Below are positions 40 to 355 of a stretch of 51,201 bases of DNA, piece after piece. How positions within the stretch are numbered: the first letter of the stretch is position 1; each line of letters opens with the position of its first letter. Source of the stretch: Pseudomonas phage PAB1; the sequence record PP931177.1, one strand, 5' to 3'. The position numbers and the translations under genes were made by a program. The notes under the pieces were generated by a model. It saw nothing but the letters and a program-made list of their open reading frames with translations, searched no databases and was not told the origin of the DNA.

Positions 40-355
40 AGCTTACCGGTAATTTACGAAACCGGGAATTTGGGTCGAGCCTTAGTGCCGCGTGGGCTTG
101 AAGCGCTTATTCGGATACTTCCCGGTTTCGGATGCAGCCGCAAAAGTATACTACAGCGAAAATCGATTGCACAATCCTAATAGAAAAAATCTATCACGGA
201 CGTTACCTATCTTTAAAATTAATAAAATTAATAGTAATTTGGTAATTTGGTATACTTTGGTATTTGAAAGCCTCGCGGCACTAAGCTTGTACATATCCCG
301 TCAAGTTTCCGATTCCAGCCAGCTCGCGGCAGGGTCGCCGGAAACTTCCGGACTT
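40..355. repeat. Structured noncoding element, copy A: GGTAATTT motifs, an inverted partial core (78-99), CAAAAGTATA (141-150), GGTAATTTGG repeats (235-250), the core hairpin region GAAAGCCTCGCGGCACTAAGCTTGTACATATCCCGTCAAGTTTCCGA (266-312), and a second hairpin (AGTTTCCG...CGGAAACT, 304-349)
   Basis: Direct comparison with copy B at 19650-19990. Confidence 0.7.

Follow-up and report, generated by a model that had tools for sequence, protein, structure and literature searches.

What is the long stretch without genes that precedes the small terminase gene (terS) of Pseudomonas phage PAB1, and why does a similar stretch recur upstream of the prohead protease gene? The DNA analyzed here, called the window, is a 51,201-nucleotide stretch of the phage genome (record PP931177.1). 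An initial annotation described the two stretches as copies of a structured RNA-like element, copy A at the left end of the window and copy B further to the right. The evidence assembled below favors a different reading: copy A is probably the pac region of the Pbunavirus phages, fused to the distal terS promoter and 5' leader and acting at the level of DNA.

The phage and its gene neighborhood

The first 2.5 kb of the window match ~290 P. aeruginosa PB1-like phages (Pbunavirus, ~66 kb) at 80-99% identity, mostly >90%, and the region at ~19.4-20.3 kb likewise matches PB1-like Pbunavirus phages. The window is, on these matches, from a Pbunavirus, a PB1-like P. aeruginosa myophage. In annotated relatives the primase gene and a terminator are followed by copy A and then by a 189-codon gene. 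The product of the corresponding gene in the window matches the "Small terminase" of phage E217, solved by cryoEM (PDB 7UXE, 10 chains), over residues 1-189 with an E value of 6.7e-126, which bears out its earlier description as TerS-like. From the primase stop to the terS start the distance is 964 bp in LMA2, and this gap holds copy A. The region had been rightly called non-coding, but the length of 760 bp given for it was too short because the window begins inside the gap. Copy B lies after the portal and MuF-like genes and two small ORFs, and before the prohead protease gene (20114). A tRNA/tmRNA scan found none.

Several other features of the neighborhood were noted. A palindrome with a 16-bp stem, AAAGCCCCGGATTCTGAACTAGAGTCCGGGGCTTT (window 1454-1488), separates terS from the convergent leftward genes; the records of LMA2, KT28 and JG024 list it as a bidirectional terminator, and in 14-1 it was mapped as T013. 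Two tandem 48-bp units with 90% identity lie at 2513-2608, inside a leftward or rightward ORF region, and the gene near them is labeled "IgA FC receptor precursor" in some records. A repeat family, CGTTTCGATGAGGTNACTATA, with an extended 80-nt version, occurs at 6005-6055, 6598-6648, 8040-8119, 11784-11863 and 13976-13996 on the strand opposite the leftward genes; read as reverse complements, its members resemble the kind of sigma-70 early promoter mapped in 14-1.

Two copies of one element

When positions 1-360 were searched by blastn against the whole window, the sole non-self match was 6-317 against 19617-19950 (63.6% identity over 343 columns, E 1.7e-20). The local alignment of the two copies scores 80, compared with 13.8 +/- 2.2 (maximum 22) in 300 dinucleotide shuffles, and the best block returned by a repeat finder is 84 nt long with 82% identity (234-317 vs 19867-19950). 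The likeness between the copies claimed by the initial annotation is thus real. Its four parts occur in identical order in both, as two paralogous non-coding elements, and all the motifs that it listed for copy A were recovered within 1-2 nt of the coordinates it gave. The tandem motif was among them, but as AGTAATTTGGTAATTTGG at 233-250 rather than GGTAATTTGGTAATTTGG at 235-250. The features are collected in Table 1.

Table 1. Coordinates of the features of copy A, copy B and the terS region in the window
Feature	Position	Strand	Remarks
Variable left arm, copy A	1-150		Continues ~175 bp upstream of the window start
Left-arm iterons, copy A	CCGGTAATTT 47-56; GGGAATTTGG 64-73		Motif scan
Inverted CGCGGCA box within AGCCTTAGTGCCGCGTGGGCTT	78-99		Copy A left arm
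GCCGC, then CAAAAGTATA	137-150		Copy A left arm; CAAAAGTATA at 141-150
Near-invariant AT-rich center with preferred DNA end	151-232	+	82 nt
Distal terS promoter (14-1 P040)	228-267	+	TTAATA, 17 nt, TATACT, upstream TG; consensus scan and mapped TSS 267
Tandem iterons AGTAATTT-GGTAATTT-GG	233-250	+	Overlap P040 -35 to -17
47-nt core, including right-hand CGCGGCA box	266-312	+	40/47 identical to copy B
Inverted repeat AAGTTTCCG ... CGGAAACTT	303-347	+	27-nt spacer
Further leader motifs	368-434	+	TCGCGGCA box 368-375; iteron GGAAATTTGG 425-434
C/A-rich, G-poor remainder of the 497-nt P040 leader	430-760	+	Sequence composition
Proximal terS promoter (14-1 P041)	639-675	+	TAGACG, 18 nt, TACAAT; TSS 675
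terS, small terminase subunit gene, 189 aa	764-1333	+	PDB 7UXE match
Copy B, paralogous element upstream of the prohead protease gene	19617-19990	+	Center differs from that of copy A
Sigma-70 promoter of the head gene operon (14-1 P014)	20053-20088	+	TTTACC, 17 nt, TATAAT; TSS 20088

In the left arm of copy A, GGTAATTT is present at 48-55 and GGGAATTTGGG at 64-74. The tandem iterons of the right arm have their counterpart in copy B at 19866-19883. Each copy carries a long-range inverted repeat, 78-99 vs 267-290 in copy A and 19686-19707 vs 19900-19921 (95% complementary) in copy B. Within the shorter inverted repeat of copy A, AGTTTCCG (304-311) pairs with CGGAAACT (339-346), and a TCGCGGCA box occupies 324-331 of the spacer. 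The iteron GGTAATTTGG, with at most one mismatch, has nine matches in the window where 1.8 are expected, all nine of them within the two elements; TCGCGGCA has 11 matches against 4.1 expected, with six of the 11 in the elements. Copy B shares the arms, core and hairpin with copy A, without the invariant center or the promoter of the latter. Its center contains a perfect 17-bp palindrome, ACGTTATAATATAACGT, at 19807-19823, and a GTAACGTT half-site at 19777-19784. All eight aligned genomes retain the palindrome, none with more than one change; copy A has one ACGTTA only. It looks like the operator of a dimeric protein.

A miniature inverted-repeat mobile element was considered and rejected. The similarity (6-317) runs past both arms of the inverted repeat, and the copies are exactly two, at the same syntenic positions in ~296 Pbunavirus records and, in analogous form, in 29 Wifcevirus records. 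An exact 16-mer scan of IMG/VR with the core returned two Pbunavirus contigs only, the rest being chance matches.

A preferred DNA end in the center of copy A

The sequence records of Ab27, Ab28, BrSP1, Pa193, E2005-C and PaP1_EPu begin at window position 164, though some of them may just follow the Ab27 convention, and those of PA8P1 and vB3530 begin at 166. Reads from Ab27, Ab28 and Ab29 showed a fixed termination without a terminal repeat, and the genome ends of Ab27 and Ab28 were set accordingly (Essoh 2015, PMC4482731). For JG024, the nanopore reads longer than 30 kb numbered 161, of which 36 begin at 59,376 +/- 5 bp, and XbaI gave an additional band of ~15 kb that fits a pac fragment from 59,376; the authors considered the pac site putative and called for Southern confirmation (PMC10913387). 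Alignment of JG024 to the window places 59,376 exactly at 164. PhageTerm described SCUT-S1 as circularly permuted with a predicted Pac site in an AT-rich region (PMC6521218) and assigned zikora to the headful class. For Banzai it found no significant terminus peak, and headful packaging was inferred with no site named (PMC12390725). By the weight of these published data, the series-initiating cut would therefore lie between 163 and 164, with packaging proceeding rightwards into terS. Mapped to the window, the data, with Banzai discordant, give a preferred and sequence-defined end, the other ends being dispersed. The cut is next to the small terminase gene, 600 bp upstream of its start. The initial annotation had guessed at a packaging initiation site in this region, and the read ends at 164 fit that guess.

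Conservation of the element

The primase-terS gap was aligned across 11 diverse Pbunavirus genomes and the variable columns were counted. Positions 1-150 are hypervariable, with 10-18 variable columns per 25, and fall into two haplotypes; positions 151-225 have two variable columns in 75. In all but one of 296 records the whole 82-nt center keeps an identity of 97.6% or more, in genomes that diverge overall by up to ~14%. The variable left arm nevertheless retains its motifs, namely the iteron, the CGCGGCA box, TAATTTCCGGTTT, and GCCGC followed by AAAA-TAT. Taken as a whole, the pattern indicates that copy A would be read as motifs in DNA and not as a folded RNA or a coding frame. The left arm of copy B is matched more closely by the JG024/PB1 haplotype (alignment score 53.5) than by that of the window (31.5), which suggests that sequence may have been exchanged between the copies.

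A protein-coding role was weighed against this pattern. ORF 92-574 matches phrog_18478 with an E value of 5.6e-93 and is annotated as a gene in JG024, SCUT-S1, zikora and others, and each of the 11 genomes has a long open frame, which ends at the equivalent of window 574 in nine of them. PHROG 18478, however, is a function-unknown family made of these same annotations. The variable sites of the ORF are spread evenly over the codon positions (21/23/28), the frame is broken in zikora and Ab28, the starts range from -235 to +89 about a fixed anchor in the 11 genomes, and the frame would have to span the hypervariable arm, the DNA end and a mapped start site. For the minus-strand ORF 301-522 the variable sites by codon position are 19/16/18. 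The first annotators of PB1, 14-1 and LMA2 left the region unannotated. Neither a codon-position bias nor a conserved frame was found, and it is extremely unlikely that ORF 92-574 encodes a protein. The earlier dismissal of both ORFs therefore stands, on the absence of codon periodicity, the broken frames and the inconsistent starts.

Promoters and leader of terS

Start sites were taken from the ONT-cappable-seq data (cap-enriched long-read RNA 5' end mapping) of phage 14-1, Tables S3 and S5 (bioRxiv 10.1101/2023.10.13.562163). In that work P040 (TSS 59399(+), sigma-70; TU045, 59399-60626) and P041 (TSS 59807(+), sigma-70; TU046) give transcripts covering gp76. P014 starts at 13257(+), and the + strand from 9247 to 13257 has no listed start site. 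Placed on the window, these three start sites correspond to 267, 675 and 20088, the last being ~100 nt beyond copy B. The initial annotation had missed the mapped promoter that forms part of the element; the records of LBL3 and CEB_DP1 already annotate promoters in the copy A region. The TATACT of P040 ends 11 nt before the start site, a spacing longer than usual for sigma-70. Its hexamers vary between genomes, and the strongest constraint is on the center with the cut. The terS mRNA that starts at 267 therefore opens with the 47-nt core and the hairpin (303-347), and its leader is 497 nt long. Thus terS has a mapped 5' end, a promoter-like sequence and a transcript that reaches the gene. No start site was mapped in copy B in 14-1, and its -10 region is degenerate. 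A "CTGGG" phage-specific promoter motif of 14-1 seen in copy B (AGCCTGGGAAAT) was dropped: it reads CATGGG in most genomes and has no start site.

The remainder of the leader has a composition of its own. Window positions 501-1000 have a GC skew of -0.295 and an AT skew of +0.259, and 430-760 resembles a Rho-utilization tract. Conservation is high at 551-700, where 10 of 150 columns vary, and SCUT-S1 has a 39-bp tandem duplication within 430-760. Rho-dependent attenuation of the long terS transcript is conceivable.

The leader bears directly on the view that the element is a structured non-coding RNA or a cis-regulatory leader, in which the inverted repeat and hairpins fold in RNA. The core and hairpin do belong to a real leader, one pair in the stem of the hairpin covaries between copies (GC in 8, AU in 4, GU in 1), and the strand 60-310 is more stable than its shuffles when folded as DNA (z -3.77), owing to the long inverted repeat. 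But the start site at 267 separates the left and right arms, so the long-range helix is impossible in the P040 transcript, which carries the core and lacks the left arm and the center. The leader RNA 267-420 is as stable as its shuffles (z -0.23). RNAalifold, applied to 16 right halves from copies A and B, gave nine consensus pairs in a 3-bp and a 6-bp stem with a covariation term of -0.31 kcal/mol. The long-range arms do not covary, since in copy A of the JG024 type CAGTAGG in the left arm stands against CACTAAG in the right arm; covariation of the long-range repeat was rejected on the finding that this type pairs a copy-B-like left box with a copy-A right box. Rfam searches with both copies, at gathering thresholds and at E up to 1, gave no match, and copy B contains no mapped start site. 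Neither a covarying structure nor stability above background was found. A role as folded RNA is very unlikely, and the RNA-like character assigned to the element by the initial annotation was given up.

Proposed packaging initiation at copy A

These observations fit a model in which the terminase would cut the AT-rich center between 163 and 164 and so open a headful packaging series that runs rightwards into terS. The iterons of the arms (GGTAATTTGG type) and the inverted CGCGGCA boxes would be the sites for a recognition protein; the most plausible candidate is the decameric TerS, whose gene follows directly, judging from its position and from SPP1, P1 and lambda. The right arm would double as P040, whose transcript would run from 267 through the core and the 497-nt leader into terS. 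The tandem iterons lie at -34 to -17 of this promoter, so their occupancy could tune terS expression, in which case terS may be autoregulated. A review reports no appreciable DNA binding by E217 TerS in vitro, apparently with DNA that did not contain these sequences (PMC9611059).

An architecture of iterons and AT-rich DNA in two copies also brings replication to mind. Copies A and B could be two replication origins, each with an AT-rich unwinding element and iterons for an initiator, the DNA end being incidental or related to replication. The iteron-type origins oriL and oriR of phage SPP1 are likewise two dispersed copies with iterons adjoining an AT-rich segment. Copy A directly follows the primase gene, a promoter adjoins its center, and the GC content of 0.41-0.48, vs ~0.55 elsewhere, is that of an AT-rich region, a feature that is not specific to origins. 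The SCUT-S1 authors wrote that the AT-rich Pac region "could be a replication origin" (PMC6521218). The differences from the SPP1 origins are that no initiator gene is associated with A or B, that there is no skew signal and that one of the centers holds a packaging end. Cumulative GC skew, a weak marker of origins in phages, has no extreme at either copy; its minimum is at ~50 kb, in the DNA polymerase gene, in agreement with minima at 42,280 and 52,360 of the Banzai genome (PMC12390725). Fixed read starts and a pac fragment are signatures of packaging, and in the Wifcevirus phage Mansfield the end of a terminal repeat sits in the corresponding element. Replication origins at A and B are therefore judged unlikely, and packaging initiation at copy A is the favored reading.

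Related elements in Wifcevirus and other phages

TerS homologs with ~40% identity are found in E. coli phages of the genus Wifcevirus, and in several of their records terS begins ~360 bp from position 1. For Mansfield, PhageTerm predicts a terminal repeat of 3,673 bp whose left end is position 1 of the record. This end lies in the AT-rich center of an iteron-flanked element, 360 bp upstream of terS. The end-start junction of ~200 nt matches 16118-16304 of the same genome (68% identity, E 2e-21, both orientations), in a 416-bp non-coding gap upstream of the capsid maturation protease gene. The Mansfield elements have tandem iterons, ACGGATGATACG, in a 9-bp register, where those of Pbunavirus, GGTAATTT, have an 8-bp register; they also have a GCCGC/GCGGC inverted pair and an AT-rich center of ~100 nt holding the terminus. 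In the first 17.2 kb, all six exact iteron matches are within the two elements, and one of the three near matches (at 1432, with two mismatches) is outside them. The right boundary of the repeat (3673) has no such element. Each of the 29 Wifcevirus records contains two or more places that match the element. The copies within one genome are much more alike than their counterparts in the other genus, which argues that a single genome-specific factor may read both copies.

The twin was also sought in two other phages. In tabernarius the primase-terS gap is 582 bp long and iteron-rich, with six copies of ATAGTCA. These repeats are arranged at 65343-65647 as two forward, two reverse and two forward around an AT-rich segment. 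The segment contains TACTACAGC, and the same motif occurs just before the Pbunavirus cut site (TATACTACAGCG). No clear second copy was found in tabernarius, where just a short shared motif precedes the protease gene, and in Xanthomonas phage FoX6 no gap precedes the protease gene. The twin is thus not universal among the relatives.

The role of copy B

Copy B is a paralog that probably binds the same factor or factors as copy A; candidates for its role are an additional binding site for terminase, a regulatory platform and a replication origin. No evidence of cutting was found there, and 294 of 296 records are intact at this position. The E215 record (NC_042080.1) starts and ends in the copy B center (19784/19785); it was rejected as a second end because it is an unedited SPAdes contig.

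If both elements were platforms for a phage transcription regulator that coordinates terS with the head operon, the pac cut would be a separate feature, merely adjacent to one of them. Both copies head rightward morphogenesis units, the tandem iterons overlap P040 from -35 to -17, copy B ends ~100 nt before P014, and the perfect palindrome in its center is typical of a dimer operator. On the other hand, the copy B iterons are >200 nt upstream of the sole mapped start site, and no start site was seen where a counterpart of P040 would lie. In copy A, the center that bears the cut is under the strongest constraint, not the variable promoter hexamers, and the proposal names no regulator. It is judged unlikely, slightly more so than the origins considered above.

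The pac reading of copy A can be extended tentatively to the two copies together. They may be a functional pair bound by one phage factor, most plausibly TerS as a decamer or in higher oligomers, both at terS and at the uncut twin that precedes the operon for prohead protease, scaffold and capsid. This factor would either bring the two sites into synapsis ahead of the first cut, following the T4-type model, or link packaging initiation to head gene expression. Such pairing would have been kept, with concerted change of the iterons, since before the Pbunavirus/Wifcevirus split. This extension is a minority possibility, far less secure than the pac assignment of copy A.

Comparison with known packaging sites

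Bipartite pac regions are known from headful phages, the pacL-pacC-pacR region of SPP1 and the P1 pac site with its flanking hexamer repeats being examples. Like copy A, these are a few hundred bp long and lie next to or before the small terminase gene; they have a central cut with short repeats on both sides, the cut initiating a series that continues by headful packaging, and they overlap the signals for terminase gene expression. The motif sequences are unrelated, TerS binding is putative in the present case, and copy A has an inverted CGCGGCA box in each arm. Neither SPP1 nor P1 is known to have a second full paralog, such as the one found here 19.6 kb away.

Phage T4 has paired pac-like sequences, in genes 16 and 19, on which Black's "synaptic" terminase model is built. 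As in Pbunavirus, two homologous sequences are found, one at the small terminase gene and the other several kb away among late structural genes of a myophage. The T4 sites are ~24 bp long and within coding sequence, whereas the Pbunavirus elements are ~330 bp and non-coding, and T4 has no unique packaging end where Pbunavirus has one preferred end. Neither amplification nor synapsis is known from Pbunavirus. A further parallel is that the rings of E217 TerS have been suggested to associate into higher oligomers (PMC9611059).

Copy A also resembles, in its layout, a cohesive-end site, with repeated (here putative) small-terminase sites beside a precise cut and upstream of the small terminase gene. 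In the cos site of lambda these parts are cosN, which is nicked, and the R sites of cosB, which are bound by gpNu1. Lambda has cohesive ends at each genome unit; Pbunavirus has one preferred end together with circular permutation, and the copy A repeats flank the cut on both sides, unlike those of cos.

Significance

The approximate position of pac, the promoters and TerS are already in the literature. In the literature searched, no account was found of the exact coincidence of two published ends, of a cut at the near-invariant center of an iteron-flanked element, of the paralog upstream of the head genes, or of the recurrence of the pair in Wifcevirus. Pbunaviruses rank with the Pseudomonas phages most widely used in therapy, and published accounts of their genome ends disagree, describing them as defined, as permuted or as giving no signal. 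Placing the end in an iteron-flanked element by terS gives a concrete candidate for the pac site. Copies A and B supply specific DNA substrates for the solved E217 TerS, and the center of copy A is a sequence to preserve in the design of synthetic or rebooted genomes. The conserved twin before the head genes, in two genera, could reveal a two-site packaging step or a coupling to late expression.
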